This document shows positions 11,096-26,433 of a stretch of DNA of 64,000 nucleotides, one piece after another. The notes beneath the pieces are model-generated. The model was given only the letters and a program-made list of their open reading frames with translations, ran no database searches and was not told the origin of the DNA. Position 1 is the first letter of the stretch. Every line of letters starts with the position of its first letter. The stretch is from contig MFUM01000008.1 in assembly GCA_001786955.1 (NCBI GenBank), forward strand, positions 11,062 to 75,061, written 5' to 3'. Made by a program: the position numbers and the translations under genes. Origin of the DNA: Candidatus Nomurabacteria bacterium RIFCSPHIGHO2_12_FULL_42_19 (GTDB lineage Bacteria; Patescibacteriota; Minisyncoccia; Phycocordibacterales; UBA9973).

Positions 11096-11113
11096 AAAGC
11101 ATCCCATGCTTTG

Positions 11114-11432: not shown

Positions 11433-11464
11433 AATTATAATGTTTTAATTTTCAAATTACAAAC

Positions 11465-11536
11465 GGAGGCCTGGGGCGGAATTGAACCGCCGTATATTCC
11501 TTTTGCAGAGGAATGCCTTACCACTTGGCTACCAGG
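11465..11536 (-). tRNA. tRNA-Cys (anticodon GCA), discriminator U, CC encoded
   Basis: Acceptor GGCCTGG/CCAGGCC, anticodon stem TTCCT/AGGAA with loop CTGCAAA, T-arm GGCGGTTCAATTCCGCC. Confidence 0.85.
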
Positions 11537-11564
11537 CCTTACACTTTTTCTTGCTAATATTTTA

Positions 11565-12079: not shown

Positions 12080-12113
12080 CTCCTCCTGCGAAGGGGGAGA
12101 TTAAGAGGGGGTC
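12080..12113. repeat. Short C5/G5 motif element in the infB-rbfA intergenic spacer
   Basis: tctcctcctgcgaagggggagattaagagggggtc; also supplies the rbfA SD. Confidence 0.3.
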
Positions 12114-13690
12114 TATTTCTGCACTACGTTGAACGCTTCTATCATGTCTCCGGCCACAACTTCTATTTTTGATTCAATCATCATCCCAAACTCGGCGCCT
12201 TCTTCCACGATGCTTGTTTTTACCTTGTTTTTTTCTAAATTCACGATTTTTCCGCGGCCAATTTCAAATTCCCGGCGCATTATTTTTACCGTGCTATTCA
12301 GGTTGATTTGTCCTTCAATTACTTTGCCTCCGACTATTTGGCGTTCTTTTGTGCGGCTAAAAGCCCGGATAATTTTTGCCCGGCCAGTTGTTTCAATTGT
12401 TTCAATTCTCGGTCTTTTTTCTTCCATTTGTTCCTCGAGCCACTCGGTCAGTTTATAAATAATATTAAAAAAAGAAATTATTACTCCTCTTTTTTGCGCG
12501 ATTTCTATGGCGCTCTTGTCGGTCTTCACGTTGAATCCGATGACCAGCGCGTTAATGCCGGATGCCACTCCTTTTATATCCGATTCGGAAATAGGCCCGA
12601 TGCCTTTTCCGACAATTCTGAATTCGGCATTCTTGCTTACGGTGGCGTTAAGCTCGGAGTTTATTTTGGCGATTTCTTTTTCAATAGCTTCAATTGAGCC
12701 GGAAACGTCGGCTTTTAATATTATCGGTATTACTTTTTTACCACTCCCAACCCCCTCCTTATCAAGGCGGGGAATTTCTCCTCCTCGTTGAGGAGGAGTG
12801 TCTGAAGGGTGAGGTGGTAAATTTTTGGCATATTTTTCAGCGTCCGATTTTTTTTGAAAAGATTTGAATTGCGCTCCGACTCTCGGCATCTTGTCAAAAC
12901 CCACAATGCGTATCGGGGAAGAAAAACTGGCTTCGTCTATCATTTTTCCCGAAAAATTTTCAATTATTCGCGTGGAGCACAGGCTGTCTTCCACGACGAC
13001 GGTCATCCCTTTTTTAATTGACCCGTTTTTTATAATCAAAGTTGCCAGTATTCCGCGCCTGGAATCTAGATTTACTTCGATTACAAAGCCGGAAGCGTCT
13101 TCTTCAATGCTGCCGGTCAAATTTTCCATTTCAGCTAAAATCAAGATTAGCGACAGCAGATTGTCTATTCCCGTGCCGATTTTCGCGGAAATTTCCGCGT
13201 AAGGGACTTTTCCTCCGTAATTTTCCAGATAAATTTCATTTTCCGCCAATTCTTTTTTTGTTTTTTCTACATTGGCGCCCGGCTTATCTATTTTATTTAT
13301 TGCGACAATACACGGAGTTTTGGATTCTACGATGGTTTTCCAGGCCTCAATCGTTTGTGGTTTTACGCCATCTTCAGCCGAAACGACCAGAATGGCAATG
13401 TCAGCTATTTGCGCACCTCGTTCCCGCATTTTTGAAAAAGCCTCGTGTCCGGGAGTGTCCAAAAAAGTTATTTTTCTATCTTTCCCATTTTCACCTGCCT
13501 GCGCAGGCAGGTCTTTATGCACAACTTCATAAGCGGAGATTTTCTGAGTTATGCCTCCGGCTTCATTTTCAGTGATATTCGTCTTCCTGATATAATCAAG
13601 CAACGTTGATTTTCCGTGATCAATATGGCCCATAACAACTACTATAGGCGCACGAACCTCCAAATTTAATTTTTTGTCATTTTTTTCCAT
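12113..13690 (-). CDS. infB: Translation initiation factor IF-2 (short form lacking the N-terminal domain)
   Basis: G-domain 'VVVMGHIDHGKSTLLD', 'DTPGHEAF', 'NKIDK'; beta-barrel domains C-terminal to it. Carries an in-frame GC-rich insert (see repeat 12741-12817). Confidence 0.9.
   Translation of the reverse strand: MEKNDKKLNLEVRAPIVVVMGHIDHGKSTLLDYIRKTNITENEAGGITQKISAYEVVHKDLPAQAGENGKDRKITFLDTPGHEAFSKMRERGAQIADIAILVVSAEDGVKPQTIEAWKTIVESKTPCIVAINKIDKPGANVEKTKKELAENEIYLENYGGKVPYAEISAKIGTGIDNLLSLILILAEMENLTGSIEEDASGFVIEVNLDSRRGILATLIIKNGSIKKGMTVVVEDSLCSTRIIENFSGKMIDEASFSSPIRIVGFDKMPRVGAQFKSFQKKSDAEKYAKNLPPHPSDTPPQRGGEIPRLDKEGVGSGKKVIPIILKADVSGSIEAIEKEIAKINSELNATVSKNAEFRIVGKGIGPISESDIKGVASGINALVIGFNVKTDKSAIEIAQKRGVIISFFNIIYKLTEWLEEQMEEKRPRIETIETTGRAKIIRAFSRTKERQIVGGKVIEGQINLNSTVKIMRREFEIGRGKIVNLEKNKVKTSIVEEGAEFGMMIESKIEVVAGDMIEAFNVVQK
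12741..12817. repeat. G/C-rich palindromic mini-element inserted in-frame in infB (encodes ~PPHPSDTPPQRGGEIPRLDKEGVGSG)
   Basis: 'ccactcccaaccccctccttatcaaggcggggaa...gaggaggag...gaggtgg'. Shares its opening CCAC(C/T)CCCAACCCC(C)TCC with the typA insert at 19781-19797, and the ccttatcaagg core with mnmA copy C (26131-26207). Confidence 0.55.
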
Positions 13691-13693
13691 ATA

Positions 13694-14161
13694 TTATACT
13701 TTGGCTTTTTGCAGCGCCTCTTTTTCTTCAGCCGAGAGTTCGTATTCGGATTTTCCATTCTTGACAGGCTTGGCAAATACGCTCATTCGTTCACGGGAAT
13801 ATAAGCTTGAAATTACCAGACCATCGCCTTCCTCATCCAGCATTCCAATCGCAAAACTCTGATTGCTACCCTGGTCGGGAAACGGGTTGAAACGTATTGT
13901 CTCAAGCCCACGAATGCTTTTTTTAAGCTTGGTATTTATCACGGAAATATTTTTTTCCATGTTTTCTTTTGCGATTTTTAATTTGCCGATTTCTTGTTCC
14001 AGCACAACAATAGTATCCTCTAAATTCTTCGCTTTTTTACCGAGGAAAAATCTCTTTAGGCGTTTTTCGGTAACTATCGCCCAAACAGCGCCAATCAAAA
14101 CGGCGATTCCGATAAAAACAAAAAAAGCCAAGAGAAAAATATTATCGAGCTTTATATTCAT
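13694..14161 (-). CDS. DUF4446-like protein (N-terminal TM helix, coiled coil, conserved C-terminal 'RFNPF.D.GSNQSFA' domain)
   Basis: Pattern recalled from DUF4446 family members; identification from memory, not searched. Confidence 0.45.
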   Translation of the reverse strand: MNIKLDNIFLLAFFVFIGIAVLIGAVWAIVTEKRLKRFFLGKKAKNLEDTIVVLEQEIGKLKIAKENMEKNISVINTKLKKSIRGLETIRFNPFPDQGSNQSFAIGMLDEEGDGLVISSLYSRERMSVFAKPVKNGKSEYELSAEEKEALQKAKV

Positions 14162-14185
14162 GCACTTTCAATATATACTATTTTC

Positions 14186-15457
14186 ATGCCTAAATCAAAT
14201 AAAAATAAGCTAAAAAATATATATCTTGACTATGCCGCTTCGGTCTCGGCTAACCCAAGTTCGATACATTTACTGGGAACAGAAGCCAAAAATGAACTTC
14301 AAAATGCGCGGAGAGTTGTTGCGGGGGTTTTGGGCGTCCGATTCGAAGAAATAATTTTTACGAGCAACGGCACAGAAAGCAATAATCTTGCAATTCAGGG
14401 AATAATTTATGCTGCAGAAAAGCCAGGTTTTCTTCCGCATATTATAACCACCAATATAGAACATCCTTCTGTGTTTGAAACCTGTAAGTTGCTGCAAAAA
14501 AGAAAACTGGCGGAAATTTCTATCATACCGGTCGAGGAGAGTGGAATAGTGGACCCTAAAAAAATAAAAAGAGAAATTAAAAAAAACACGGTGCTTGTTT
14601 CGGTAATGTATGCGAACAATGAAATTGGAACCATCCAGCCGATAAAAGAAATTGCAAAAGAAATTAGACACTTTAAGAAAGTGAAGGCAGGAAGTTTTTC
14701 GAATGGTCTGGCCGGGATTGGGCTGGAATCTGCCCTAAAGACAGATTCCAAAGAGAACCGAGGACCTGAGAAAAATTTACTGCCTTCACGAACTTATCCT
14801 TTTTTCCACACTGATGCTGTGCAGGCGGCAAATTATCTTGATTTAAATGTGGAGAAACTCGGTGTAGATATGTTGACGCTCTCCGGTTCAAAAATTGAAG
14901 GAGCAGGCAGGGTGGGGGTTCTTTATAAAAAGAAGTCAGTACCGCTTGCACCGATATTCGGTGGAGGGGATCAGGAAATGGGACTGCGGCCTGGGACGGA
15001 AAATTTACCGGAGATTTTAAAATTTGTTGAAGCGTTAAAATTAGTCCAGAATGTAAAAGAAAAAGAGGCGAAACGTTTAGCCAAACTCCGCGATTATTTC
15101 ATAAATAAAATTTTTAAAAATACTAGAAACTCAGCGATAGCAGAAAGTTTAGTAATTTTGAATGGAGACGGTAAGAAGCGTTTACCGAATAATGTAAATA
15201 TTAGTTTTCCAAAAATTCCGAGTGATCTTTTAGTTATTGAACTTTCAGCCAAAGGTATAATGGTGTCTTCAAAAAGCGCCTGCAAAAGCGGAGAGAGTGG
15301 AGGTTCGTATGTTATCAAAGCGATACATCCTGAAATAGATTCTGAAACCGGCGGATTGCGTTTTTCATTAGGCCGACAGACAACTAAATCTGACATCGAT
15401 TATACCGTTAAAGTTTTATCCGAAATTTTGACAAAACTGAAAAAATGGTATAATTAA
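14186..15457 (+). CDS. Cysteine desulfurase (NifS/IscS family, class V aminotransferase) with a ~35-aa lineage-specific insertion
   Basis: 'LDYAASVS', 'FTSNGTESNN', 'HTDAVQA', PLP-lysine in 'LSGSKIEGAGRVGVLY'. Extra segment 'FKKVKAGSFSNGLAGIGLESALKTDSKENRGPEKNLLPSRT' lies between conserved blocks. Confidence 0.8.
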   Translation: MPKSNKNKLKNIYLDYAASVSANPSSIHLLGTEAKNELQNARRVVAGVLGVRFEEIIFTSNGTESNNLAIQGIIYAAEKPGFLPHIITTNIEHPSVFETCKLLQKRKLAEISIIPVEESGIVDPKKIKREIKKNTVLVSVMYANNEIGTIQPIKEIAKEIRHFKKVKAGSFSNGLAGIGLESALKTDSKENRGPEKNLLPSRTYPFFHTDAVQAANYLDLNVEKLGVDMLTLSGSKIEGAGRVGVLYKKKSVPLAPIFGGGDQEMGLRPGTENLPEILKFVEALKLVQNVKEKEAKRLAKLRDYFINKIFKNTRNSAIAESLVILNGDGKKRLPNNVNISFPKIPSDLLVIELSAKGIMVSSKSACKSGESGGSYVIKAIHPEIDSETGGLRFSLGRQTTKSDIDYTVKVLSEILTKLKKWYN

Positions 15458-15460
15458 AAA

Positions 15461-16234
15461 ATGGATATCAAGGAATTAAACAAATCACAACTTATATTAT
15501 TGGCAGTGCTTTTGAGTTTCATTACCTCTATCGCCACCGGCATTACGACTGTAACCCTGATGCAGCAGGCACCGGCATCTTTTACCGTGCCTGTTAACCG
15601 TATCATCAAGCAGACAATTGAAAAGATAGAGCAGGTGGAAGGCAAGACCACGGTCCAGACTGTAATTGTCAAAGAAGAAGATTTAGTGGTAGATGCCATA
15701 GCAAAAAGTAGGTCTGCCGTATTTGTCGTAAGCAAAGAGATCCTTGATACGGATGGAAAAACTATTGAAGTTTCAGCTGGCAGGGGATTTGCAGTTTCCG
15801 CGGACGGCATAGTCGCAGTTGATGCCAATCTTGTATCGGATAAGGGGGTTTATTACGTAAAAAATGACAGCGGAAAATTTAAAGCGGATTTTATGTCTTT
15901 AGACAAAGCGGGTTTTTCTTTCCTTAAAATAGGAGCCTCGCTTGACGAAAAGAATAAGCTTGTTTTTACCGTTCCCGCTTTTGGAGATCTGGAGAAGATG
16001 AAGATCGGACAGAAGGTTTTATTATTGGGCAATACAATATCTTCTTCTATTTTTGAAGGGAATAAAAATGTCAACATTAATGTTGCAAAATCAAATGCCG
16101 GAGGGCTGGTCCTTAATTTAGACGGCGAGGCTCTCGGCATCGCCCTCTTTGGTGACACGACAAATTTTGCTTCAATTGGAGCAATCACTGAGGCTTTAAA
16201 GTCAACAGAAACAGTAATTCCTAAAACGCCGTAA
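15461..16234 (+). CDS. Trypsin-like (S1/HtrA-like) protease-fold protein with degenerate catalytic triad; membrane anchored
   Basis: The oxyanion/Ser motif 'GNSGG' is replaced by 'SNAGG'; no His in the expected 'TNAHV' position. N-terminal TM helix. Confidence 0.45.
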   Translation: MDIKELNKSQLILLAVLLSFITSIATGITTVTLMQQAPASFTVPVNRIIKQTIEKIEQVEGKTTVQTVIVKEEDLVVDAIAKSRSAVFVVSKEILDTDGKTIEVSAGRGFAVSADGIVAVDANLVSDKGVYYVKNDSGKFKADFMSLDKAGFSFLKIGASLDEKNKLVFTVPAFGDLEKMKIGQKVLLLGNTISSSIFEGNKNVNINVAKSNAGGLVLNLDGEALGIALFGDTTNFASIGAITEALKSTETVIPKTP

Positions 16235-16283
16235 GCAATAAAATTATTTTAAAATTGAAAATTAGAAATCAATAATCAAATAT

Positions 16284-19004
16284 ATGCCGCCATTAAATAA
16301 ATTTACAACCAAAGCCAAAGACGCCATTAAAAAAGCCCATGAGCTGGCTATTGAGCGCGGGATGAACCACGTGTCTTCGCTTCACTTGCTGGCGGCGCTT
16401 TTGCTTCAGGAAGAGTCTATGGTGAATTCTATTTTGGATAAATTAGAGATTGACACGATGCTTTTGACTGATTCCGTCGTGGAACTAATCGAACTGCCGG
16501 AATCGCGCAGTACTCTTTCGCCGTCGTATCAAATTTATCTGAATCCCGATTTAGCCCAAGTCATCGAACAATCGGCCAAATTGGCGGAATATATGAAAGA
16601 CGATTTCGTTTCAACCGAACATCTTTTTATCGCTATCTTGGAAGTCACTAGTGAAGCGCGCGAGACTTTGGCGCGGTTCAGGATCCATAAAGACCAGGTA
16701 ATAAAAGTTTTAGAAGAGCTTCGCAGCCAGAATATCACCGATGTTTCCGAACCGAAAAAATTTAAATTATTGATAAAATACACCCGCAATCTGACCAAGC
16801 TGGCCAAAGAAGACAAGCTGGATCCGGTTATCGGCCGCGATAATGAAATAACCCGCATCATGCAGATACTCTCGCGCCGGACCAAGAATAATCCGATTTT
16901 GATAGGCGAAGCGGGAACTGGCAAGACAGCCGTGGTGGAAGGCCTGGCCCAGATGATTGCAAAAAATAATGTTCCCGAATCTTTAAAAGACAAAGAACTT
17001 GTTTCGCTTGATTTAGGATTGCTCGTGGCCGGCACAAAATATCGCGGAGAGTTTGAGGAAAGGCTGAAAGGCATTATGAAAGAAATTGAGCGGTCCGACG
17101 GAAAAATTATTCTCTTTATTGACGAGATTCATACAATTGTCGGCGCCGGAGGAGCCGAAGGCACGATGGATGCCTCAAATATGCTGAAGCCGGCGCTTTC
17201 TCGCGGGGAATTGCGGGCTATCGGCGCGACGACTTTGCGGGAATATCAGAAGCACATTGAAAAAGATCCGGCTCTGGCCCGCCGATTTCAGCCGGTTTAT
17301 ATTGACGAGCCCAGCGTGGAAGACGCTATTGCCATCCTGCGCGGACTTAAAGAAAAATACGAACTTTTTCATGGTATACGTATTACGGACGATAGCATAA
17401 TTGCCGCGGTCAATCTTTCTTCCCGCTACATCACCAACAGATTCCTACCGGATAAAGCCGTAGATTTGGTTGATGAAGCTTCTTCGTCGCTTAAAATAAT
17501 GCTTGAAAACAAGCCGCCAGTCTTAGAGGACGCGCACAGAAGGACAATGCGTCTAGAAATAGAGAAAGAAGCGCTGAAAAAAGAAATCATTTCTTCAAAT
17601 GGCGGTCAGAAAGATAAGCAAAAAGAAAAGGAAATCAAAAACAGAATTAAAGAAATAGACAAGGAAATAGGCAATTTGTCCGAAAAAACCAGGGAGCTTG
17701 AATTAAAATGGCAGAACGAAAAATCAACCGTAATTGAAATCCGGGCAATCAAGAAAGAATTGGAAAGCATCCGTCTGGAGGCCGAGGATGCGGAAATGAA
17801 AGCGAATCTTTCCCGGGCGGCTGAAATACGCTATGGAAAAATACCTGAGTTGAAAAAAGAACTTGAAATAAAGCTCGCGCGGCTGAAGAAATTGCAAAAA
17901 TCGCGCAGAATTTTGAAAGAAGAAATTACCGCCGAAGATATTGCCGAAGTAGTCGCTCGTTGGACCGGCATACCGCTTACCAAAATGCTTGAAGAAGAGC
18001 GCGAGAAGCTTGATAAGATGGAAACAGAATTAAGGAAAAGAATTGTCGGCCAGGATGCGGCAATCAAGCGGGTTGCCGACGTCATTCGCCGTTCGCGCGC
18101 CGGCATCGGGGATCCGAACCGCCCGATTGGTTCCTTCATATTTTTGGGACCGACCGGGGTCGGCAAGACCGAGCTCACCAAAGCCTTGGGTCAATTCATG
18201 TTCAATGACGACAATGCGATTATCCGGGTAGATATGTCCGAATACATGGAAAGGCATTCAATGTCCAAGCTAATCGGTTCTCCGCCGGGCTATGTGGGTT
18301 ATGATGAAGCGGGTCAGCTGACCGAAGCCGTCCGGCACCGGCCTTATGCCGTCATACTTTTTGACGAAATTGAAAAAGCTCACCCGGAAGTTTTCAATGT
18401 GCTTCTGCAGGTTATCGACGAAGGCAGACTGACTGACGGGAAAGGAAGAGTGGTTAACTTCAAAAACACCATTATTATTCTTACCTCCAATATCGGCTCG
18501 CAATTCGTGGAAAAAATGGAATCAATCGGATTTTCCAATAATTCCAAGAAACAGGATTACGGCAACATGAAGGAAAAAGTTATGGAAGCGTTGAAAGATA
18601 ATTTCCGCCCGGAATTTCTGAATCGCCTGGATGAAATTATTGTTTTTGACGTTTTGTCGGAAGAGTCTCTCAAAGAAATAGTCGGCCTACGGATTAAAAT
18701 AGTCCGGGATCGCCTGGCAGGCAAAGGAATAAATCTTGAAATTTCCGATGAGGCTCTTTCATACTTGGCAAAAGAAGGCTATGACCCGCACTATGGCGCT
18801 CGCCCCCTGAATCGCCTGATTCAAAATAAAATTTTGAATCCAGTCGCTTCATATATCATTTCAAACGGAGTCAAGAAAGGAGATGCTGTTTTTGTGTCTG
18901 TCAAAAATAGTGAACTTGCCATTGAAACCAAAAAAGGCCTGTTCACCGGTAGGCGTGGAAAGATTAAGAGTTCCATTCGCGTACAATCTCATTCTGCGGT
19001 ATAA
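16284..19004 (+). CDS. clpB: ATP-dependent chaperone ClpB
   Basis: Clp-N repeats; two AAA+ modules with Walker A 'GEAGTGKT' and 'GPTGVGKT'; long middle coiled coil between NBD1 and NBD2; 906 aa. Confidence 0.9.
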
Positions 19005-19088
19005 AAATCTATTAAAAAAGATGCAAAAATAACAATTTTGTGTTATTTTATACTTGTCCTGCCGAAACTTTAGTGAAGGCGGATGCAC

Positions 19089-19171
19089 GCGTCGGTGGTA
19101 GAGTGGTCAATTACAACAGACTGTAAATCTGTCGCCTTAGGGCTACGAAGGTTCGAATCCTTCCCGACGCA
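19089..19171 (+). tRNA. tRNA-Tyr (anticodon GTA), long variable arm
   Basis: Acceptor GCGTCGG/CCGACGC, anticodon stem ACAGA/TCTGT with loop CTGTAAA, T-arm GAAGGTTCGAATCCTTC, discriminator A. Confidence 0.85.
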
Positions 19172-19247
19172 CAAAAACTTGCAGTTTTTATAAAATTATG
19201 TTATAATATCAAGTAATAAGAAATATAGAGAAAGCCTGAAGGCTTTT

Positions 19248-21152
19248 TTGTTTGATTTATATAAAAATAAAATGGAAATCAGGAACATAGCAATTATAGC
19301 TCACGTGGACCACGGCAAGACGACTTTGACCGATGCGCTGATGAAGCAAAACGGTGGGCTTCAAGACGAGGGAGTATCAATGGATTCGAACGATCTTGAA
19401 AAAGAGCGCGGTATTACCATTTATTCTAAAAACACTTCTATCTACTATAAAGACACGAAAATTAATATTGTTGATACTCCCGGTCACGCGGATTTCGGTT
19501 CAGAAGTAGAACGCGTTCTTCGGGCTGTTGACTCGGTTTTACTGCTAGTCGACAGCGCGGAAGGGCCGATGCCGCAGACCCGGTTCGTTTTGAAAAAGTC
19601 TTTGGAACTGGGGCTGAAGCCGATAGTTGTCATAAATAAAATAGACAAACCAGCTTCCGACCCGCACAGGGTGCACGAGGAAATTCTGGAATTATTTTTT
19701 GAATTGGGGGCTAATGAAGAACAGGCAAATTTTGAAACGGTTTATGCAATCGGGCGCGAAGGACTGGCTTTTAGAAACTACCCCACCCCAACCCTCCCCA
19801 AAGGAGAGGGGGAAATTCACAGTCTCCCCCTTGGGGGGAGAGAAAGAGGGGGTGATCTCTCGCCGCTCCTTGACGTAATTTTGGAAAAAGTTCCGCCGGC
19901 TTCCGTAAATGAAAATGGAAAAATGTCCGCGCAAGTTTTTAATCTGGGTTATGATAATTTCTTGGGTCGGATGGCTGTTGCGCGTATTTATTCCGGAAAA
20001 ATATTGTCCGGAAGTCAGATTTTTGTAAAAGGAGAAAACGGCACAAGAAAGGGAAAAATAACGAAGCTTTTTAGTTTTAAGGGCATAGCGAGAAAAGAAA
20101 CAGATTCGGCAATTTCCGGCGACATCGTTCTTTTGGCCGGAATTCCGGACATATATATCGGGGAAACATTATGCGAAGACGAGAGTATCGAGCCGCTCCC
20201 GCATATCGCCATTGATGAGCCGACTCTTTCTCTCAATTTTTTAGTGAACGATTCTCCGTTTGCGGGTCGGGAAGGGAAATTTGTCACTTCTAGACAGCTT
20301 AAAGAAAGGCTGGAAAAAGAATTGGAAATCAACGTCGGCCTCAAAGTTGATTTTTCCCTGCCTGCGCAGACAGGTCCCGACCAAGGCAAAAATAAAATGG
20401 GTCCGTCTTTTTTCAAGGTATACGGCCGGGGAGAACTTCATGTTGCTATTCTGCTGGAAAATATGCGCCGGGAAGGTTTTGAAATGCAGGTATCCCAGCC
20501 GGAAGTTATTATCAAAGAAAATAATGGAGTTAAGACAGAGCCATATGAAGAGTTGATAGTTGATGTTCCGATGGAATATTCCGGAGGGGCGATTGAAAAA
20601 CTCAGCAAAAGGCGCGGTATTATGAAAGACATGGTGGAAAAAGAGGGCATTGCGAGGATTATTTTTGACATACCGACGCGTGGGCTATTGGGTTATCGCG
20701 GCGAATTTATCATAGATACGAAGGGAGAAGGCATAATGTCTTCGCGGGTTACGGGTTTTAAAGAATACGCCGGAGAAATAAAAAAGCGCGAATACGGTTC
20801 CATGACATCCATGGTCGCCGGCAAGGCAGTAGCTTTTTCCCTTGCAAATTTACAGGAACGTGGTATATTATATATTAGTCACGGAACCGAGGTTTATGAA
20901 GGCATGGTGGTTGGCAATGTTTTAAAAGGGGATGACATGTCGGTGAATCCCACAAAAGGGAAACAGCTTACCAATATGCGGGCTTCCGGCACAGACGAAG
21001 CCATAATCCTGAATCCTGTTTTTATTTTGAATATTGAGCGCGGCCTAGAAGTGATGAACGGAGATGATTATTTGGAAATCACGCCGAAATTTGTTAGACT
21101 CCGCAAGAAGTATCTGACGGAACTTGACCGGGTTAAGGCAAAGAGACAATAG
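19248..21152 (+). CDS. typA: Translational GTPase TypA/BipA
   Basis: 'NIAIIAHVDHGKTTLTDAL', 'DTPGHADF', 'NKIDK'; EF-G-like domain order. Carries an in-frame G/C-rich insert. The start may be the downstream Met at MEIRNIAII. Confidence 0.9.
   Translation: MFDLYKNKMEIRNIAIIAHVDHGKTTLTDALMKQNGGLQDEGVSMDSNDLEKERGITIYSKNTSIYYKDTKINIVDTPGHADFGSEVERVLRAVDSVLLLVDSAEGPMPQTRFVLKKSLELGLKPIVVINKIDKPASDPHRVHEEILELFFELGANEEQANFETVYAIGREGLAFRNYPTPTLPKGEGEIHSLPLGGRERGGDLSPLLDVILEKVPPASVNENGKMSAQVFNLGYDNFLGRMAVARIYSGKILSGSQIFVKGENGTRKGKITKLFSFKGIARKETDSAISGDIVLLAGIPDIYIGETLCEDESIEPLPHIAIDEPTLSLNFLVNDSPFAGREGKFVTSRQLKERLEKELEINVGLKVDFSLPAQTGPDQGKNKMGPSFFKVYGRGELHVAILLENMRREGFEMQVSQPEVIIKENNGVKTEPYEELIVDVPMEYSGGAIEKLSKRRGIMKDMVEKEGIARIIFDIPTRGLLGYRGEFIIDTKGEGIMSSRVTGFKEYAGEIKKREYGSMTSMVAGKAVAFSLANLQERGILYISHGTEVYEGMVVGNVLKGDDMSVNPTKGKQLTNMRASGTDEAIILNPVFILNIERGLEVMNGDDYLEITPKFVRLRKKYLTELDRVKAKRQ
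19779..19856. repeat. G/C-rich palindromic mini-element inserted in-frame in typA (encodes ~NYPTPTLPKGEGEIHSLPLGGRERGG)
   Basis: 'ccccaccccaaccctccccaaaggagagggggaaattcacagtctcccccttggggggagagaaagagggggtg'; self-complementary C5/G5 blocks. Confidence 0.55.
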
Positions 21153-21189
21153 GATTAACTTTAGAAAAAATAACTTTTAACCAATAATT

Positions 21190-22218: not shown

Positions 22219-22220
22219 AA

Positions 22221-22300
22221 AACTCTCCCCCAGTCTCTCCCTTGTCAGGGCGAGGAAAAAAGCAGCAAGTTCCCTTGATAAGGGGGACATAGGGGGTTTG
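22221..22300. repeat. G/C-rich palindromic mini-element, intergenic copy
   Basis: 'ctctcccccagtctctccc...tcccttgataagggggacatagggggtttg' contains the CCTTGATAAGGGGG core (reverse complement of the infB copy's ccttatcaagg). Confidence 0.5.
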
Positions 22301-22345
22301 TATTTTTTGCTTTGTATTTTTGCATTTCTGTATTAAAATATAAGC

Positions 22346-23695
22346 ATGATTGATGTTGTGATTTTTTGGGCGTATAAGATATTGATAGGTCTTTTACCTG
22401 TGGCTGGAGTGATAGCGCTTGGGTGGGTTGCTTGGAAATTCTGGGTTCACTACATACAGCAGGATTTTATTTCCGGAATAGACTTTGTCCTGCTTGAAAT
22501 AGTCCCGCCGCGCGATGTTTTACGGAGTCCGAAAGCAATGGAACTTTTTATAACTAATGCTCTTTATCACTGGAGCATGAAAGGAGGCAAGGAAGAATAT
22601 TGGCAAGGAGCCGTATGGTTTTGGTTTTCTCTGGAGATTGCGTCGATTGACGGGCAGGTGCATTTTTACATCCGGACGCCGACGCGCATCAGGGGCTTGA
22701 TTGAAACCCAAATGTATGCCCAATATCCCCAGGCGCAAGTCAAGGCAGTGGAGGACTATACTTTGGGAGTTGATGAGATAACTCCCAAGGGCGCCTGGAA
22801 CGGCTGGGGGTGCGAATTTAAGCTGACGAAACCCGAGGCGTTTCCTATCAGAACTTATGTTGATTATGGATTGGATAAAGACCCGGACGAGGAAGTGAAA
22901 GTTGACCCTATTTCTCCGGTGGTGGAATTTTTCGGGTCGCTAGGGAAAGGAGAACAAGCATGGATGCAGATTATTGTTACACCTTCAAAGAAAGTATATC
23001 GTACTAAGGGGACATTGTTTGGATATCACGACTGGGTTAGAGAATCCAGATTGCAGGTAGAAAAGTTTTTGAAACCTTTTACCCGTTTTCACCCGGACCC
23101 GACCGAACCCGGAAGATATGCGAAAGAAATTCGCGTTCCGGGATTTTTGGATGCTACCATGAAGGCCATGAGCGCGAAAACCTCCAAGCTTGGCTTTGAT
23201 ACCGGGGTTAGGTTAATGTATGTTGCCAAGAAAGAGATATATCCTCCAGGTTCTAGAACCAATAATTCTAGAGATATCCGTTTAGTTTTGCGTCAATATG
23301 CGAAACCTGACTGTAATGAGTTTTATCGCATAAATTCAGCCCAAGGAGATGCTCTTAATAGCAGCATACTTACGCTTTCCCGTTTTCAAGTAATGACTTT
23401 AGCAAATAGAATGCTTCATGAATATCGCGAAAGAGCATTTTTCCATCTCCCTCTTAGGCATCATATTTTTTCCGTACATATTTTTGAAGCTATATTTCCA
23501 AAACCCATTATTCATGCAATATTCATGACTATGATAAAACCATTTTTCTTGCCTTATGTGCACCACAAAACTTTCGTCTTAAATACCGAGGAGTTGGCGA
23601 CGATGTGGCACTTCCCGGGCCAGATTTTGAAAGTTCCTACTCTTGAACGCATTGAGTCCAAGGAAGCTTCTCCTCCTTCGAACTTACCGACTTAA
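22346..23695 (+). CDS. Membrane-anchored hypothetical protein (possibly a detached N-terminal module of the VirD4/TraD-like proteins)
   Basis: N-terminal TM helix, a large soluble domain, and a C-terminus '...TEELATMWHFPGQILKVP'. Confidence 0.3.
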   Translation: MIDVVIFWAYKILIGLLPVAGVIALGWVAWKFWVHYIQQDFISGIDFVLLEIVPPRDVLRSPKAMELFITNALYHWSMKGGKEEYWQGAVWFWFSLEIASIDGQVHFYIRTPTRIRGLIETQMYAQYPQAQVKAVEDYTLGVDEITPKGAWNGWGCEFKLTKPEAFPIRTYVDYGLDKDPDEEVKVDPISPVVEFFGSLGKGEQAWMQIIVTPSKKVYRTKGTLFGYHDWVRESRLQVEKFLKPFTRFHPDPTEPGRYAKEIRVPGFLDATMKAMSAKTSKLGFDTGVRLMYVAKKEIYPPGSRTNNSRDIRLVLRQYAKPDCNEFYRINSAQGDALNSSILTLSRFQVMTLANRMLHEYRERAFFHLPLRHHIFSVHIFEAIFPKPIIHAIFMTMIKPFFLPYVHHKTFVLNTEELATMWHFPGQILKVPTLERIESKEASPPSNLPT

Positions 23696-23698
23696 ATT

Positions 23699-24616
23699 AT
23701 GGAAAATGAAGAATTAAAAAGCTCTAATGGGATGGATAAAACCAGGAAAATTATTTTTTGCTTTTTGGGCGTATTTTTGTTTTTTATTTTAGTTTATATT
23801 TTTACTATTTCTGCTCCAAAGAATTTTCCCAAAGGCGTTATTTTTAACATAGAGCAAGGAGCCAGCTTAAGAAGCGTGTCTTTTAATTTGAAGAAAACGA
23901 ATATCATACGATCCCGTATTTTATTTGAGGCCTTCGTCATTATATATGGCGGAGACAAGCATGTTATTTCTGCTGATTATTTATTTGAAAATAAAATTCC
24001 AGTTTTTGAAGCTGCCAGGCGCATCTCCAGAGGTGAACGCCATTTGGCTCCCGTTAAAATTACGATTCCGGAAGGTTTTACTACCGAAGACATAGCATCC
24101 GCCTGCATTTCCAAGCTTCCATATTTTGATAAAGAAAAATTTTTGCTTTCCGCGAAAGGGTCCGAGGGGTATCTTTTCCCGGATACTTATTTCTTTTTTA
24201 CCACTGCAGACGAGAGAGATGTAATTAAATCCTTAACTGACAATTTTCAGAAGAAAGTTTCTTTTTTAGATAAGGATATAATACAAAATGGCAAGAGCAG
24301 GGAAGACATTATCACAATGGCTTCAATCATCGAGAGGGAGGCAAAGGGGGATATCGATAGGGGAGTCATTTCCGGGATTTTATGGAAAAGGATTAAAATC
24401 GGCATGCCGCTTCAGGCTGATGCTGCGCCCGGGACTTATAAAACAAAAGGATTACCCAAGAGTCCGATTTCAAACCCCGGATTGGAAGCCATAAAAGCGG
24501 CTATTTATCCGCAAAATTCGCCTTATCTTTACTATCTGCACGACAAAAATGGCATTATCCATTATGCGAAAAATTTTACGGAACATATGAAAAATATATC
24601 AAAATACTTAAAATAA
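23699..24616 (+). CDS. mltG: Endolytic murein transglycosylase MltG (YceG-like)
   Basis: N-terminal TM helix; 'EGYLFPDTY' and 'ASIIEREA' signatures of the YceG family. Confidence 0.75.
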   Translation: MENEELKSSNGMDKTRKIIFCFLGVFLFFILVYIFTISAPKNFPKGVIFNIEQGASLRSVSFNLKKTNIIRSRILFEAFVIIYGGDKHVISADYLFENKIPVFEAARRISRGERHLAPVKITIPEGFTTEDIASACISKLPYFDKEKFLLSAKGSEGYLFPDTYFFFTTADERDVIKSLTDNFQKKVSFLDKDIIQNGKSREDIITMASIIEREAKGDIDRGVISGILWKRIKIGMPLQADAAPGTYKTKGLPKSPISNPGLEAIKAAIYPQNSPYLYYLHDKNGIIHYAKNFTEHMKNISKYLK

Positions 24617-24617
24617 A

Positions 24618-25145
24618 ATGAGAAAACACAATTTTGCTTTTATTGACATAGAAACTACCGGACTGGATGTTATTAATCATGAAATCATTGAAATCGGTTG
24701 CGTCTTGACGACACCCGAACTTCAAGTTATAGAAGAATTTGAAATGAAAATAAAGCCGGAACACCTGGAAAATGCCGATCCGGTTTCGCTTAAAATCAGT
24801 CATTACGAGGAGAATTTATGGACGGATGCACTTACACTCAAAGAAGCGATTAAAACATTGTCGGAAAAAGTTCAGGATGCGATTATGGTCGGGCAGAATG
24901 TTGCTTTTGATTCGGGCTTTTTAGAACATGCATTTTCTAAAACCGGAGTAAAAAATAGCATGCATTATCACAAACTAGATACCATTGCTATCGCTTGGGC
25001 GAAGTTTCATCAAGATACGAGCTTCGAGCATTTTTCACTTCGGGAAATGTGCGAGCGTTTCGGCATAAAAAATGAACGCTCTCATACCGCCCTTTCTGAC
25101 GCGCGCGCGACTTTTGAGCTTTACAAAAAGCTGATGTCTATATAG
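24618..25145 (+). CDS. DEDDh 3'-5' exonuclease (DnaQ-like/oligoribonuclease-like)
   Basis: Exo I 'FIDIETTGLD', Exo II 'GQNVAFDSGFL', Exo III 'HTALSDARATFELY'. Confidence 0.7.
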   Translation: MRKHNFAFIDIETTGLDVINHEIIEIGCVLTTPELQVIEEFEMKIKPEHLENADPVSLKISHYEENLWTDALTLKEAIKTLSEKVQDAIMVGQNVAFDSGFLEHAFSKTGVKNSMHYHKLDTIAIAWAKFHQDTSFEHFSLREMCERFGIKNERSHTALSDARATFELYKKLMSI

Positions 25146-25254
25146 AATCAAATTGTCAAACTTTTCGAAACATGAATTTTTCCGGTACGGATTTTTTAAA
25201 GCTTAAAAAATCCTGAAATTCTCGCGCCGTCGCGCTCGAAACCCCTTCAAAATT

Positions 25255-26433
25255 ATGTTTCAAAAAGTTCTATTATTTATGAAGAAAAAAAAAGTATTTG
25301 TCGGACTTTCGGGGGGCGTAGATAGCGCTGTGAGTGCTGCAATCCTGAAGAAAAAAAATTATGAAGTTGTCGGGGTTTTTATCAAAACCTGGCACCCGGA
25401 CTTTTTAATATGCAATGAAGAAGAAGAACGCCGGGACGCTATGCGTGTGGCGGCCTTTTTAGATATCCCATTCCTGGCTTTTGATTTTGAAGATGTATAT
25501 AAAAAAGAAGTTGCCGATTATATGATTAGGGAATATAAAGCCGGCAAAACGCCTAATCCGGATGTGATGTGTAACAAAGAAGTGAAGTTCGGCATTTTTC
25601 TTAAAAAAGCGTTGTCTATGGGGGCGGATTATATAGCGACAGGACATTATGCAAGAGTGAGCGGGGCAGGGAATTCTTTTTCTCGGGAATATCCTGCTTC
25701 GCATCGTCACCACTCAAAAAAGTATTCCCTGCTCCGCTCCCCGGATAACACGAAAGACCAGAGTTATTTTCTTTGGACGCTCAAACAGGAGCAATTAAAG
25801 AAGATTTTATTTCCCATCGGGCATTTAAAAAAAACGAAAGTCCGCAAATTGGCAAAAAAATTCAATTTACCGGTTGCGGAAAAAAAAGACAGCCAAGGCA
25901 TATGCTTTTTGGGCGCGGTGGATTTAAAAGAATTTTTAAAGCATTATATCAAGTCTAAAAAGGGGAAAGTGTTGGACGAAAAAGGAGAAGAAATAGGTTT
26001 TCACGATGGCGTTGCATTTCATACACTGGGAGAAAGGCATGGTTTCACGATTACTAAAAAAAGTCCGGCTGGCGGTCCGTATTACATAGTAGGCAAAAAT
26101 GTAAAGAAGAATATTTTAATTGCTTCTCAAATCCCCCCTGATAAGGGGGGACAAAGGGGGGTTGAATTTAAAAAACCCCTCCCGACCTCCCCTTATCAAG
26201 GGAGGCTAAAAATACAAATAGAAAATACAAATTGGATTACTAAAGTCCCAAACCCAAAAAAGACTTACACGGCTCAAATCCGCTATCATGGCGAATTTTT
26301 ACCCTGCAAAGTAATTTGCGCAAAGTCGAATTTTGCACAGGTGATTTTTGAAAAGCCGATTTTAGTTGCCTCCGGCCAGTCTTGTGTTGTTTATGACAAA
26401 GATATTTGCTTGGGCGGGGGAGTAGTTGTATGA
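25255..26433 (+). CDS. mnmA: tRNA-specific 2-thiouridylase MnmA
   Basis: PP-loop 'VGLSGGVDSAV'; catalytic Cys regions 'NPDVMCNKE' and 'SQGICFLG'. Carries an in-frame G/C-rich insert. Confidence 0.85.
   Translation: MFQKVLLFMKKKKVFVGLSGGVDSAVSAAILKKKNYEVVGVFIKTWHPDFLICNEEEERRDAMRVAAFLDIPFLAFDFEDVYKKEVADYMIREYKAGKTPNPDVMCNKEVKFGIFLKKALSMGADYIATGHYARVSGAGNSFSREYPASHRHHSKKYSLLRSPDNTKDQSYFLWTLKQEQLKKILFPIGHLKKTKVRKLAKKFNLPVAEKKDSQGICFLGAVDLKEFLKHYIKSKKGKVLDEKGEEIGFHDGVAFHTLGERHGFTITKKSPAGGPYYIVGKNVKKNILIASQIPPDKGGQRGVEFKKPLPTSPYQGRLKIQIENTNWITKVPNPKKTYTAQIRYHGEFLPCKVICAKSNFAQVIFEKPILVASGQSCVVYDKDICLGGGVVV
26131..26207. repeat. G/C-rich palindromic mini-element inserted in-frame in mnmA (encodes ~IPPDKGGQRGVEFKKPLPTSPYQGRL)
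   Basis: 'atcccccctgataaggggggacaaaggggggttgaatttaaaaaacccctcccgacctccccttatcaagggagg'; contains both orientations of the CCTTATCAAGG/CCCTGATAAGGGG core. Confidence 0.55.

Follow-up and report, generated by a model that had tools for sequence, protein, structure and literature searches.

The question raised by this locus is why three conserved housekeeping genes of Candidatus Nomurabacteria, a groundwater bacterium of the Parcubacteria (CPR) with a tiny genome, carry G/C-rich palindromic segments within their reading frames. The initial annotation of the 64,000-nt stretch analyzed here (the window) had proposed a family of ~50–80-bp palindromic mini-elements at six sites, and its author was not aware of a description of such elements for CPR-like genomes. 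All six sites exist, at coordinates that were exact or off by 1–3 nt, and two copies had been overlooked (elements F and G, below), which brings this one repeat family to eight loci in the window. An additional module lies directly outside its right end (L072, 5411–5443).

The repeat unit is in fact a module of 31–40 nt, and the longer elements (74–79 nt) are inverted doublets of it. Each module consists, in order, of a C-rich arm, a loop of 3–6 nt, a complementary G-rich arm, a spacer (~3–11 nt in window copies) and a further G-block, which is the mirror image of the G-arm and ends in GGGGT. Modules are found solo or as doublets, the latter in two alternative arrangements (tails outward, or hairpins outward with G-tails inward) and with the termini (T)ACCNCNCCC...GGGNGNGGT(A). 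The best-preserved copy is element H (62645–62697; z = -4.4), a full short form in the dnaB-recR intergenic region with the sequence ACCCCCTCC-GCCTCTGGCA-CCTCCCCCT-ATGT-AGGGGGAGG-ATG-GGAGGGGGT; it is a perfect class II triplex motif, and near-identical forms occur on many low-GC metagenome contigs. Judging from its sequence, the module is a hairpin with the potential to form a purine-motif intrastrand triplex. Its three-block architecture is common to the BoxC/PIT/TM (TMECO) triplex repeats of E. coli, other Proteobacteria and cyanobacteria (PMC4666352), and the kind of element was thus already known. We therefore classify the family, on these sequence features, as a dispersed non-coding repeat of selfish type belonging to the BoxC/PIT/TM class.

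That the family is real and dispersed, as had been proposed, is indicated by an nhmmer profile whose training copies all came from other genomes: when run on the window, it recovered elements A, B, D, E, G and H at E<0.03 and element C at E = 0.077, the best match in the reversed-window control having E = 0.82. The window contains six perfect hairpins with the C-arm first, versus 0.05 in shuffled sequences, and none with the G-arm first; one of the six (9473–9488) is terminator-like and does not belong to the family. Over 1.05 Mb (window and relatives), the corresponding numbers are 36 and 1. These 36 copies represent 26 distinct arm sequences, in which the T/A position moves on both arms together, and their perfect stems average 8.6 bp, against the 6 bp that the search required; shifting arms and long stems indicate that the hairpin is maintained through varied sequence. 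The triplex motif was detected at 6 loci in the window, at 39 in relatives and at none in the reversed controls. Near-identical module sequences are found at unrelated sites, in genomes of 30–73% GC. The 'shared core' CCTTGATAAGG put forward earlier proved to be a mere loop variant that hardly exceeds chance, with 5 matches versus 1.3 expected, a count reached in 3 of 100 shuffles.

Four copies are in-frame, namely three doublets, in infB, typA and mnmA as initially described, and one solo module. The host genes were confirmed by Pfam, whose domains flank every insert, and the reading frame through the inserts is stop-free, generating Pro/Gly-rich segments. Element B (12740–12818; infB on the minus strand) is an inverted doublet with its tails outward and the gene-strand termini ACCACCTCACCC...GGGAGTGGT; its translation, LPPHPSDTPPQRGGEIPRLDKEGVGSG, falls in the linker that joins domain II to the IF-2 C1 domain. 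Element C (19780–19853) is an inverted doublet in typA/bipA, both halves of which carry the triplex motif, and encodes (Y)PTPTLPKGEGEIHSLPLGGRERGG(D) in place of the ancestral loop LGDKSTD. Element E (26132–26205; z = -3.4), in mnmA, has the arrangement opposite to that of B, with hairpins outward, G-tails inward and an AT-rich centre, GAATTTAAAAA; the segment that it encodes, PPDKGGQRGVEFKKPLPTSPYQG, separates the PRC-barrel from the C-terminal barrel. The solo module, element F (47637–47676), lies in a TraG/VirD4-like ORF (45708–47810), where it encodes TTPAKATPPPKGGE within the C-terminal tail, a region of low complexity. The inserts had been described as adding residues, but at typA and infB they replace 17–21 nt or native linker; indeed, IF-2 is not lengthened by element B when compared to a solved IF-2, the insert occupying or replacing the inter-domain linker. 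No target-site duplication was detected at the inserts.

Comparison with relatives shows that most orthologues do not carry the inserts. At the typA site, ~50 of the 57 related genomes read keep the short loop LGDKSTD (empty site TTAGGTGATAAATCTACAGAT), as do ~100 of 120 database homologues. The site is filled in 7 lineages scattered on the TypA tree: one genome (L013) has a near-identical long form despite an IF-2 identity of only 69% with the window, and in relatives closer than L013 (78%) the site is empty. In L009 the loop holds a 34-nt palindrome that is perfect but unrelated in sequence, and in L049 the insert, LPPLRPSDTPPQAGGE, resembles the window's infB insert, LPPHPSDTPPQRGGE. At the infB site, L009 and L052 carry the same doublet as element B, four genomes (L006, L010, L017 and L013) have shorter or decayed forms, and other relatives have a native charged linker. 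The doublet arrangement of element E is also present in L049, L032 and L020. Since relatives' orthologues are mostly without inserts, the behaviour parallels that of Rickettsia palindromic elements, which also colonize genes in-frame; this precedent, already invoked in the initial annotation, holds, as a likeness of behaviour, for the in-frame position and for the empty sites. We note that at filled typA and infB sites native codons are replaced with similar boundaries in distant lineages, a pattern not expected from simple transposition; alleles transferred by recombination, or targeting of specific sites, could account for it.

The other copies are intergenic. Element A (12080–12112), between the infB stop and the rbfA start, had been taken for a short fragment ending at 12113; it is a complete solo module (CTCCTCCT-GCGA-AGGGGGAG-ATTAAG-AGGGGGT). 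The G-arm, which reads GGAGGAG on the gene strand, is located 9 nt upstream of the rbfA ATG and is thus likely to be the rbfA Shine-Dalgarno sequence; L016 and L013 carry an orthologous module at this junction. Element D (22222–22298), an inverted doublet, lies downstream of a sigma-70-r4/HARE-HTH gene and is followed by a T-rich stretch, with modules at the orthologous position in L006 and L015. Element G (53210–53246) is a degenerate solo module between convergent genes, and metagenome locus L091, which shares its left flank, holds an intact orthologous copy. The position of several intergenic copies and of the infB copy is therefore conserved across genomes, which fits old, vertically inherited and possibly functional elements.

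The conserved positions of A, with its putative Shine-Dalgarno arm, and of D could also be explained if these were functional structured DNA or RNA elements under selection, adaptive within genes rather than selfish, and serving as ribosome-binding-site occluders, mRNA stabilizers or pause sites, or recombination hotspots that diversify surface loops. Modules found 5–15 nt upstream of DUF559 start codons agree with such roles, as does the hypervariability of the host loops among relatives, which matches the genomic instability described around TM motifs (PMC4666352). We nevertheless consider this explanation unlikely. In earlier work PIT/TMECO elements had neither promoter nor terminator activity, and Holder et al. 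(2015) did not find a stable triplex in vivo (PMC4666352). Most relatives work without the inserts, copies decay at orthologous sites (as in infB of L017 and L013), and unrelated palindrome families enter the same loops in both orientations, which tolerance explains better.

In an unsupervised search, DUF559 was the top gene cluster adjoining modules: it is carried by 14 of 119 module-selected metagenome loci, with a matched module at ≤100 nt in 10 of the 14 and modules on both flanks in 9 of 12 full-length genes inspected. Reverse sampling, starting from DUF559 genes of Paceibacterota, revealed an upstream module in 6/6 cases and a downstream one in 5/6; these units carry 10-bp terminal inverted repeats (ACCTCACCCC/GGGGTGAGGT) in five different genomic contexts, and the termini of element B are the same. 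Terminal modules thus bracket a gene for a ~116-aa DUF559 (Vsr-like PD-(D/E)XK) nuclease in units of ~470 bp. In E. coli, a consensus TMECO is located ~170 nt from the DUF559 gene ycjD (chance ~0.004). Among 60 evenly sampled E. coli genomes, 37/37 with ycjD have 13–28 TMECO places and 14/14 with ≤5 places do not have the gene (Fisher p=5e-8, kinship among genomes ignored); 9 of the 23 ycjD-negative genomes retain 14–24 copies. DUF559 is, to our knowledge, no known transposase, and on this genomic association the nuclease is a candidate mobility enzyme. One member of its Vsr/DUF559 clade, I-Bth0305I, is a proven homing endonuclease (PMC3239194, PMC3424549). No DUF559 gene was found in 77 kb of the host genome, and modules flanking DUF559 in Nomurabacteria have a hairpin sequence (CCCCTCTCCAG...) that differs from most window copies.

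It is improbable, in our view, that DUF559 is a mere neighbour and that the modules are REP/REPIN-type sequences mobilized by a RAYT or IS200/IS605-type Y1 transposase elsewhere. Module size, hairpin, inverted doublets and absent target-site duplications are all typical of such repeats, and some copies have GTAG inside the block GGGTAGGGG. The RAYT-associated REPs of E. coli, however, form a different sequence family, and no Y1 transposase was present among the precomputed Pfam calls for ~77 kb of the genome or in the gene clusters near the 119 module loci, where DUF559 was the only enriched family. Similarly, Holder et al. observed no transposase near TMECOs (PMC4666352).

The same genes harbour at least three further mini-palindrome families; neither these nor the DUF559 link had been noticed in the initial annotation. 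Family 2 is an 18-nt palindrome that adds six codons cleanly to the infB G-domain (13494–13511, CTGCCTGCGCAGGCAGGT; LPAQAG) and to typA (20357–20374, CTGCCTGCGCAGACAGGT; LPAQTG), and is absent in 26/26 and 57/57 aligned relatives, respectively; a diverged copy with 3 mismatches lies in the TraG-like tail (47394–47411; PAHAGG), giving 3 sites versus 0.04 expected. Family 4 is a 61-nt palindromic insert, in-frame in a catalytic-domain loop of mnmA (25669–25729), with arms GGGAATTCTTTTT / AAAAAGTATTCCC and encoding NSFSREYPASHRHHSKKYS; it is 87–96% identical in nucleotides to inserts in L014, L053 and L056 (same orientation) and L057 and L006 (opposite), although the MnmA proteins are only ~65% identical. 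If palindromes arose in place where loops are fragile, for instance through template switching or hairpin-primed repair, with nothing copied between sites, this would explain why typA and infB show replacement and not a clean insertion, and it would explain the unrelated palindrome of L009, but neither the discrepancy just described nor the near-identical modules at unrelated sites; we regard such an origin as very improbable.

Still less credible are ordinary lineage-specific loops whose DNA likeness is a by-product of CCN/GGN codons: the segments are Pro/Gly-rich and located in indel-tolerant regions, but the same modules are intergenic at A, D, G and H, occur in both orientations and different reading frames, have stems perfect over 8–12 bp with a mirror third block and a 36 to 1 excess of C-first over G-first hairpins, and are detected by the other-genome profile and not in the reversed control, whose composition is the same. 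Artefacts of assembly or chimerism, for which a check had been suggested, can be dismissed with near certainty, as window sequences recur at 99.9–100% identity in JGI, ENA and NCBI assemblies from different samples (4–5 independent assemblies, including 15.8 kb at 100% in MAG GCA_001787055.1) and many other MAGs hold orthologous copies.

We thus favour, as a whole and with good though incomplete confidence, repeats of BoxC/PIT/TM class and selfish type, inserted in-frame and possibly driven by DUF559. Mobility is inferred here from comparative presence and absence; against it, every element is identical in all sampled strains of the host, with no polymorphism among them, the window copies have diverged from one another, and target-site duplications are absent. 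Copies would have inserted into, or replaced, native sequence during the diversification of Nomurabacteria, selection sparing only those that were in-frame and stop-free in permissive loops, and some intergenic copies may later have taken on a function, such as that of ribosome-binding site for rbfA. More tentatively, the elements may be ORF-less relatives, or target sites, of the ~470-bp DUF559 units, whose nuclease might drive spread as RAYT does for REP/REPINs or a homing endonuclease for its own element.

In published work (PMC4666352), BoxC/PIT/TM repeats of E. coli and cyanobacteria are reported to be invariably intergenic and to have no mobility gene; whereas published E. coli BoxC copies lie only between genes, those of Nomurabacteria are also found in-frame inside essential genes. 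The module family has likewise invaded alaS in L005 and, in low-GC metagenome contigs, the genes for a CCA-adding enzyme, fmt, recA, a Mur ligase, trmD, a pseudouridine synthase and a HypF/Kae1-like protein; one of these contigs (L146) is of Parcubacteria according to its RecA homologues. From these sequences, housekeeping genes appear to be widely colonized in-frame in Parcubacteria. Although the module itself was already known, this colonization, as well as the link of the modules to DUF559 genes, appears to be new.

The G/C-rich repeat studied here occupies eight loci of the window, which has a G+C content of 41%. The six sites described in the initial annotation were all recovered, namely A (12080-12112), B (12740-12818, in infB), C (19780-19853, in typA), D (22222-22298), E (26132-26205, in mnmA) and H (62645-62697, between dnaB and recR), and a repeat search added F (47637-47676; repeat pair I19), in the tail of a TraG/VirD4-like ORF, and G (53210-53246; repeat family D14), between convergent genes. 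Half of the loci (B, C, E and F) are internal to intact ORFs, where Pfam domains flank each insert; these ORFs include those for IF-2 (12113-13690, minus strand), TypA/BipA (19248-21152) and MnmA (25255-26433). When the window is taken together with its relatives, which were gathered via TypA and consist of MAGs with the labels Candidatus Nomurabacteria, Paceibacterota or Minisyncoccia, 26 of all 36 hairpins, and 25 of the 35 that belong to the family, fall within ORFs of at least 120 residues. The labels of these relatives place the source organism among CPR bacteria of the Parcubacteria type. Rfam and tRNA scans gave no match at the elements. The window is 100% identical across 15.8 kb to contig MFVC01000021.1 (GCA_001787055.1) and 99.9–100% identical to independent JGI and ENA assemblies; look-ups with the window proteins, in which strain polymorphism at the elements was sought, returned only 99.9–100% identical sequence.

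Comparison of the copies indicated that the repeating unit is shorter than the 50–80-bp element proposed initially. It is a module of 31–40 nt, consisting in order of a C-rich arm (6–10 nt), a loop of 3–6 nt (TGATAA, TGCGAA, ATGT and others), a complementary G-rich arm, a short spacer, often of exactly 3 nt, and a further G-block, the mirror image of the G-rich arm, with GGGGT at its end; in the window, the blocks are CCTCCCCCT/AGGGGGAGG/GGAGGGGGT and variants. Modules are found alone (A, F and G), together with an opposite terminal block (H), or as inverted doublets. Doublets B, C and D carry their G-tails outward and end in ACCNCNCCC...GGGNGNGGT, and E displays the reverse arrangement, with hairpins outward, tails inward and an AT-rich centre, as also seen in three other genomes (L049, L032 and L020). 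The elements have terminal inverted repeats, (T)ACCCCNNCCC...GGGNNGGGGT(A). DNA folding with ViennaRNA, which considers Watson-Crick and GU pairs only, placed an outer stem around one or two hairpins. The z-scores for B, C and D are modest (-0.8 to -1.9) because shuffled sequence made of C-blocks and G-blocks folds too, and folding energy alone is thus poor evidence. No target-site duplication was seen at the flanks of B, C, D, E and H, at filled typA and infB sites, or at six units that carry a DUF559 gene.

The family exceeds chance expectation. Perfect hairpins with a pyrimidine-only, C-rich 5' arm occur six times in the window versus 0.05 times in shuffled sequence, and G-first perfect hairpins number zero; in the window and relatives combined (1.05 Mb), 36 C-first hairpins compare with a single G-first one. 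One of the six (9473-9488) is terminator-like and lies outside the family: the stretch at 9467-9495 (AAAAAAATCCCCC-TATT-GGGGGATTTTTTT) is a perfectly symmetric hairpin between A- and T-runs, without a third G-block, and probably represents a conventional bidirectional terminator. The mean stem has 8.6 perfect pairs (search minimum 6), and the 36 copies comprise 26 distinct arm sequences, in which T in the C-arm and A in the G-arm shift position together, indicating that pairing is kept through sequence change. In a MAFFT alignment of the modules, the hairpins fall in shifting registers; a covariance model was therefore dropped, and a held-out nhmmer profile was employed along with hairpin and triplex finders. 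The profile, built exclusively from copies in other genomes, detected A, B, D, E, G and H at E<0.03 and C at 0.077, whereas the best value in the window reversed without complementation, which keeps composition and C/G runs, was E=0.82. Thus, the copies align better than G/C-rich random sequence, the alternative that the initial annotation had itself put forward, while the shared core that it had highlighted (CCTTGATAAGG) is hardly enriched.

A metagenome scan with the pattern CCCCCTN{4,5}AGGGGGAGGNNGGGNNGGGGT returned at least 119 loci. Among the matches listed, modules stem from DNA of 30–73% G+C, on contigs of up to 2.3 Mb, and their extended consensus is strikingly constant, so that the module is not specific to CPR bacteria. 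The sequence found beside E. coli ycjD, TCCCCTCGCCC-CTCT-GGGGAGAGGG-TTA-GGGTGAGGGG, led us to the literature on the BoxC/PIT/TM (TMECO) repeats, on which earlier work is reportedly that of Bergler (1992) and of Hoyne and Maher (2000). BoxC, PIT and TM/TMECO are names for the same G/C-rich class II intrastrand-triplex motifs (PMC4666352), with the consensus CCCTCNCCC N3-6 GGGNGAGGG N3 GGGNGAGGG (Holder et al. 2015, PMC4666352). E. coli MG1655 carries 23 TMECO copies, 'always located intergenically', with inverted doublets at five sites; 3610 copies were counted in 262 proteobacterial genomes, and G/C-rich TMs are plentiful in Microcystis, Anabaena and Nostoc (PMC4666352). The triplex forms in vitro, but not demonstrably in vivo, DNA flanking TMs is rearranged more, and transposases or integrases were 'never found' with TMECO (PMC4666352). 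According to the summary of earlier PIT studies in that paper, promoter or terminator activity was absent.

Membership of this class was assessed with a finder that calls for a pyrimidine block, a Watson-Crick purine block and a mirroring third block (G*G, A*A or T*A triads), separated by a first loop of 3–6 nt and a second of about 3 nt. Under strict settings C+, E+ and H match, and under relaxed settings (7-nt blocks, at most one mismatch) A, C-, C+, E+, E- and H do so; the degenerate copies B, D, F and G lie below the threshold. The reversed window and 20 local shuffles (strict settings) both gave 0 matches, and the relatives gave 39 loci versus 0 in the reversed control. These matches assign the window elements to a known repeat class, within which they form a subfamily by sequence, and a BoxC/TM-class family is thus a genuine component of the window. 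Like BoxC/PIT/TM repeats, the elements display a C-block, a 3–6-nt loop, a G-block, a loop of approximately 3 nt and a mirror G-block; they are G/C-rich on any background, multi-copy and dispersed (8 loci in 64 kb) and frequently form inverted doublets, their loops are more variable than their stems, their flanks are hypervariable, and no transposase has been reported for either. The blocks themselves differ, being CCCTCNCCC/GGGNGAGGG in TMECO, and the published TMECO consensus has no match in the window blocks; GGGTGAGG, in the tail of B, and the modules that flank DUF559 genes (GGGGTGAGG) are alone in matching the TMECO block GGGNGAGGG. A second difference is that TMECO is reported as always intergenic in E. 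coli MG1655, whereas B, C, E and F, like many copies elsewhere, are located in frame in ORFs. The third is the host, a CPR bacterium, for which the literature searched holds no description of the class; searches for palindromic elements in CPR and for REP in Patescibacteria returned nothing relevant. The repeat class was already known, whereas its occurrence in frame within housekeeping genes of CPR bacteria appears to be a new form of it.

Stop-free copies are carried in frame by essential genes of this CPR bacterium, and the orthologous sites are empty in most relatives. With respect to E. coli BipA (5a9v), the TypA insert (junction-spanning peptide ...AFRNYPTPTLPK...) adds approximately 19 residues ahead of DLSPL. 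MnmA has approximately 16 additional residues between its two C-terminal barrels. In IF-2, the element fills the inter-domain linker, which is no longer than that of Pseudomonas IF-2. An AlphaFold2 model of TypA (26-sequence alignment) reached a mean pLDDT of 40, too poor to judge loop exposure, and the loop was consequently placed by alignment to 5a9v. Approximately 100 of 120 TypA homologues (84–88% identity) read AFRHL(G/D)DKSTDLSPLL at this site, and 11 of the 120 carry related Pro/Gly inserts at exactly the same position. At the DNA level, the site is TTAGGTGATAAATCTACAGAT in about 50 related genomes, and a module or doublet occupies it in the window and in L013, L052, L022, L005, L030 and L049, where L005 has a further small hairpin nested within its copy; in filled alleles, the ancestral 17–21 nt are replaced. 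In infB, a doublet is present in the window, L009 and L052, a single module in L006 and L010 and decayed remnants in L017 and L013, and other relatives have a charged native linker. The MnmA loop is hypervariable, and many genomes have a peptide of the element type there (PPDKGGLRGVEF in L052, L011, L017 and L036). Filled typA alleles are scattered on an NJ tree of TypA proteins, which is poorly resolved and was used qualitatively. L013 has nearly the long form of the window, though its IF-2 is only 69% identical to that of the window, and the site is empty in relatives whose IF-2 is 78% identical. Replacement of the ancestral sequence being irreversible, this distribution implies either repeated hits at the site or transfer of filled alleles by recombination.

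The family extends to other genes. The typA insert of L049 (LPPLRPSDTPPQAGGE) resembles the infB insert of the window (LPPHPSDTPPQRGGE), and L005 has a copy in alaS. Among the metagenome matches listed, 16 of the 47 modules in low-GC DNA lie well within ORFs of at least 200 residues; Pfam identified as hosts a CCA-adding enzyme in two cases, one with two modules, as well as methionyl-tRNA formyltransferase, pseudouridine synthase, RecA, a Mur ligase, TrmD and a HypF/Kae1-like protein. The RecA-bearing contig (L146), whose RecA has its best named homologues in Nomurabacteria and Parcubacteria, also contains a module-flanked DUF559 gene.

Both this family and other palindromes recur in the same loops. 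Family 2, an 18-nt palindrome (CTGCCTGCGCAGGCAGGT), forms clean six-codon insertions encoding LPAQAG in infB and LPAQTG in typA, which are missing from all 26 aligned infB relatives and all 57 typA relatives; with a third, diverged copy in the TraG-like tail, three sites are observed versus 0.04 expected. Family 4 is a 61-nt palindrome (25669-25729) in a loop of the MnmA catalytic domain. Five other genomes share it at 87–96% nucleotide identity, two of these with the orientation reversed, against approximately 65% identity for the MnmA proteins. In relatives, the same loops hold yet other recurrent palindromic inserts, observed for typA in L009, L034 and L061 and for mnmA in L007, L008, L010, L011, L013, L040, L041 and others. 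These loops thus look like permissive sites that gather several mini-palindrome families.

Further inserts were recorded in the relatives. The typA loop of L009 (about 10500-10550) contains a perfect 34-nt palindrome, GGAAGCTAAGCTCCCATTTGGGAGCTTAGCTTCC; a recurrent family of inserts of approximately 80 nt encodes ..NSPAFLHPAGGTFR..; and a family encoding ..LSHGSHSNLNxxxxxxxAxxEES.. occupies two distinct loops of MnmA, depending on the genome.

Other known small repeats resemble these elements to different extents. The initial annotation had likened them to Rickettsia palindromic elements (RPEs), and in behaviour the analogy stands: these are palindromic repeats of a small genome, located in frame in unrelated conserved genes whose orthologues are empty, at positions compatible with function, with several families side by side, intergenic copies too, and presence that varies among related species. 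It fails for identity, which is that of the BoxC/TM class. RPEs are described in PMC10969869, after Ogata et al. (2000, 2002), as having approximately 100–150 bp and a family-specific peptide. The units described here, in contrast, measure 18–79 nt, are G/C-rich and have a triplex-type mirror block (a comparison by description, not by sequence), and RPEs, whose sequence families run from RPE-1 to RPE-10, have no associated nuclease gene on record. The likeness to REP/BIME/REPIN sequences concerns architecture, in that both are imperfect palindromes of 20–40 nt, single or in inverted doublets, head-to-head and tail-to-tail, without target-site duplication; as in REPIN-RAYT systems, a single small nuclease-type gene is bracketed by the repeats, and in E. 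coli repeat abundance tracks the presence of the gene (here, TMECO and ycjD). REPs, however, are extragenic with a conserved GTAG head, whereas GTAG is found in the modules only in GGGTAGGGG variants and many copies are intragenic. In addition, the bracketed gene encodes a DUF559 PD-(D/E)XK (Vsr-like) protein and not an HUH Y1 transposase; no RAYT/Y1 transposase was present in Pfam calls for approximately 77 kb of the source genome or, among the matches listed, in gene clusters beside the 119 module loci. With MITEs, the elements share the short length, the 9–10-bp terminal inverted repeats and the termini that ORF-less doublets have in common with a longer ORF-bearing unit; they differ in that target-site duplications are absent, the units are far smaller than typical MITEs, and the longer unit encodes DUF559 and no recognised transposase.

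A candidate partner gene emerged from unsupervised clustering of the ORFs within 2.5 kb of a module in 119 metagenome loci. Among the matches listed, the top cluster at distance zero from the module is DUF559 (PF04480, E=4e-31), a Vsr-like PD-(D/E)XK family; its profile is positive in 14 of the 119 module-selected loci (813 kb), 10 of the 14 genes lie within 100 nt of the matched module, and B/C/D-type doublets flank the ORF at either end in 9 of 12 full-length cases. No transposase was seen as a module partner in this analysis. Clusters corresponding to ABC transporters, LysR, FtsK and a 590-residue paralogue were discarded, being common genes, more than 1 kb away or explained by shared synteny. 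The window has no DUF559 gene that we could find, and in L006, a typA-selected relative, one lies between an inverted pair of modules. A gene-first sample consisted of L006 and five further Paceibacterota DUF559 genes picked solely on the size of their contig. The upstream module ACCTCACCCC-[CCCCTCTCCAG..CTGGCGAGGGG] is present in all six, and the downstream module [CCCCTCTCTGG..CCGGAGAGGGG]-GGGGTGAGGT in five of them; the units have 10-bp terminal inverted repeats (ACCTCACCCC/GGGGTGAGGT) and occupy five different genomic neighbourhoods. The termini of element B in infB equal those of the DUF559 units (ACCACCTCACCC...). DUF559 genes are thus recurrently bracketed by modules, in the module-first and gene-first samples alike.

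Many Paceibacterota DUF559 genes (P0121-P0240) are recorded only on very short contigs (0.5–2 kb), a pattern that multi-copy units causing assembly breaks would produce. L006 has two DUF559 genes (P0121 and P0230) on a single contig of 318 kb. In the relative L194 (1-2766), a DUF559 unit and a 153-residue ORF lie between a Lactamase_B_3 gene and an S1-domain gene; the matching gap of the window (1560-1801) spans 240 bp, with three unrelated G/C hairpins and no DUF559 gene.

In E. coli K-12, the DUF559 gene ycjD is located approximately 170 nt from a consensus TMECO, a proximity with a chance probability of about 0.004. The gene was found in 3378 of 5426 complete E. coli genomes, and TMECO-like places number 1–35 per genome. 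In 60 evenly spaced genomes, all 37 that are ycjD-positive have 13–28 such places, and 14 of the 23 that are ycjD-negative have at most five (Fisher p=5e-8). Nine ycjD-negative genomes still hold 14–24 copies, and the test takes no account of phylogeny, so that this co-occurrence is no more than suggestive. In the K-12 sequence (L201, NC_000913.3, 1351030-1351440), the last ~40 nt of ycjD (GGAGACGGTGCTGGAGAATATTC..CTGAACCG) recur approximately 90 nt downstream, with a partial TM-like hairpin (CCCTCTCCCTGAAAGAGCGAGGGGG) between the two copies; the arrangement looks like an insertion of an element into ycjD, at the 3' end of the gene.

The nearest solved structure to DUF559 is 3hrl, which has no assigned function, and none of the DUF559 literature searched (titles and abstracts) deals with these repeats. 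DUF559 has been placed in one PD-(D/E)XK clade with Vsr and I-Bth0305I (PMC3424549), a dimeric homing endonuclease that cuts a pseudo-palindromic site of approximately 60 bp (PMC3239194). This Vsr-like (EDxHD) enzyme shares with the present proteins its clade and a site comparable in size to a module doublet. It differs in being intron-encoded and in carrying NUMOD DNA-binding repeats, whereas the DUF559 proteins studied here are free-standing, approximately 116 residues long and uncharacterised.

Other features of the window were recorded as well. Six paralogous ORFs of 551–590 residues, with 60–80% nucleotide identity in blocks (repeat families D1-D13), form two clusters (36194-37849, 37964-39667 and 39713-41455; 47842-49602, 49640-51391 and 51435-53207) that flank dnaK and a TraG/VirD4-like ATPase. 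Pfam gave no match for the two of the six that were scanned, and precomputed calls list none for any of the six; in L180, a homologous ORF of 594 residues matches a treble-clef zinc finger. An AT-rich palindrome of 31–36 nt (ATTCTAATATTCTATAGAATTATAGAATAGA; pairs I2 and I3), 97–100% conserved, lies directly upstream of three of the paralogues (36160-36195, 39677-39712 and 47813-47843) and, from its sequence and position, looks like a common operator or promoter element. The arms of a 102-nt inverted repeat (pair I1; 80% complementary) are 16 kb apart, one just upstream of mnmA and overlapping its start (25168-25269), the other between the third paralogue and a PaaX-like gene (41457-41558). The window also contains five small ORFs with T4SS-pilin (PF18895) matches (7019-9436), two TraG/VirD4-like ATPases (45708-47810 and 54005-55534) and a G+C-rich island at 10090-10735 (50% vs 41%), whose long overlapping ORFs on both strands have no Pfam match and which adjoins four tRNA genes identified by a tRNA scan (10920-11538).

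We suggest that the copies probably spread as selfish DNA and that, within genes, only those lying in frame in permissive loops survived; the doublets may be ORF-less derivatives of DUF559 units, or targets for them. Some intergenic copies may have acquired a use, as in the case of A, whose G-arm reads GGAGGAG on the gene strand and precedes the rbfA start codon by 9 nt. Selfish spread does not explain why native codons are replaced with similar boundaries in distant lineages, nor why target-site duplications and strain polymorphism are missing. The association with DUF559 is the most novel and most testable lead. We tentatively propose, as a reading that we hold somewhat short of probable, that DUF559 proteins, including YcjD, are the missing partner enzyme of BoxC/PIT/TM repeats from Proteobacteria to CPR, in the manner of RAYT and REPIN or of a homing endonuclease and its target, and that in-frame colonisation of essential genes, by ORF-less modules and by no fewer than three further families of mini-palindromes, is routine in Parcubacteria.

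In the thirty years for which BoxC/PIT/TM repeats have been known, no function, means of mobility or associated gene had been assigned to them, and there is now a candidate enzyme; conversely, DUF559, a very large family of 'unknown function', may be hypothesised to consist of repeat-associated or homing nucleases. Repeats said to avoid coding sequence in E. coli run, in streamlined CPR genomes, through essential genes, with hosts such as IF-2, BipA, MnmA, AlaRS, RecA, TrmD and the CCA-adding enzyme, translation and tRNA modification being among the functions concerned. This constitutes a second RPE-like case, phylogenetically remote from Rickettsia. For the annotation of MAGs, the inserts give rise to false 'hypothetical' peptides rich in Pro and Gly and make proteins look more divergent than they are. 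In-frame repeats offer a mechanism for the lineage-specific insertions that are common in CPR proteins and, if the proposal is correct, modules and mini-palindromes would generally supply the smallest bacterial genomes with new surface loops.
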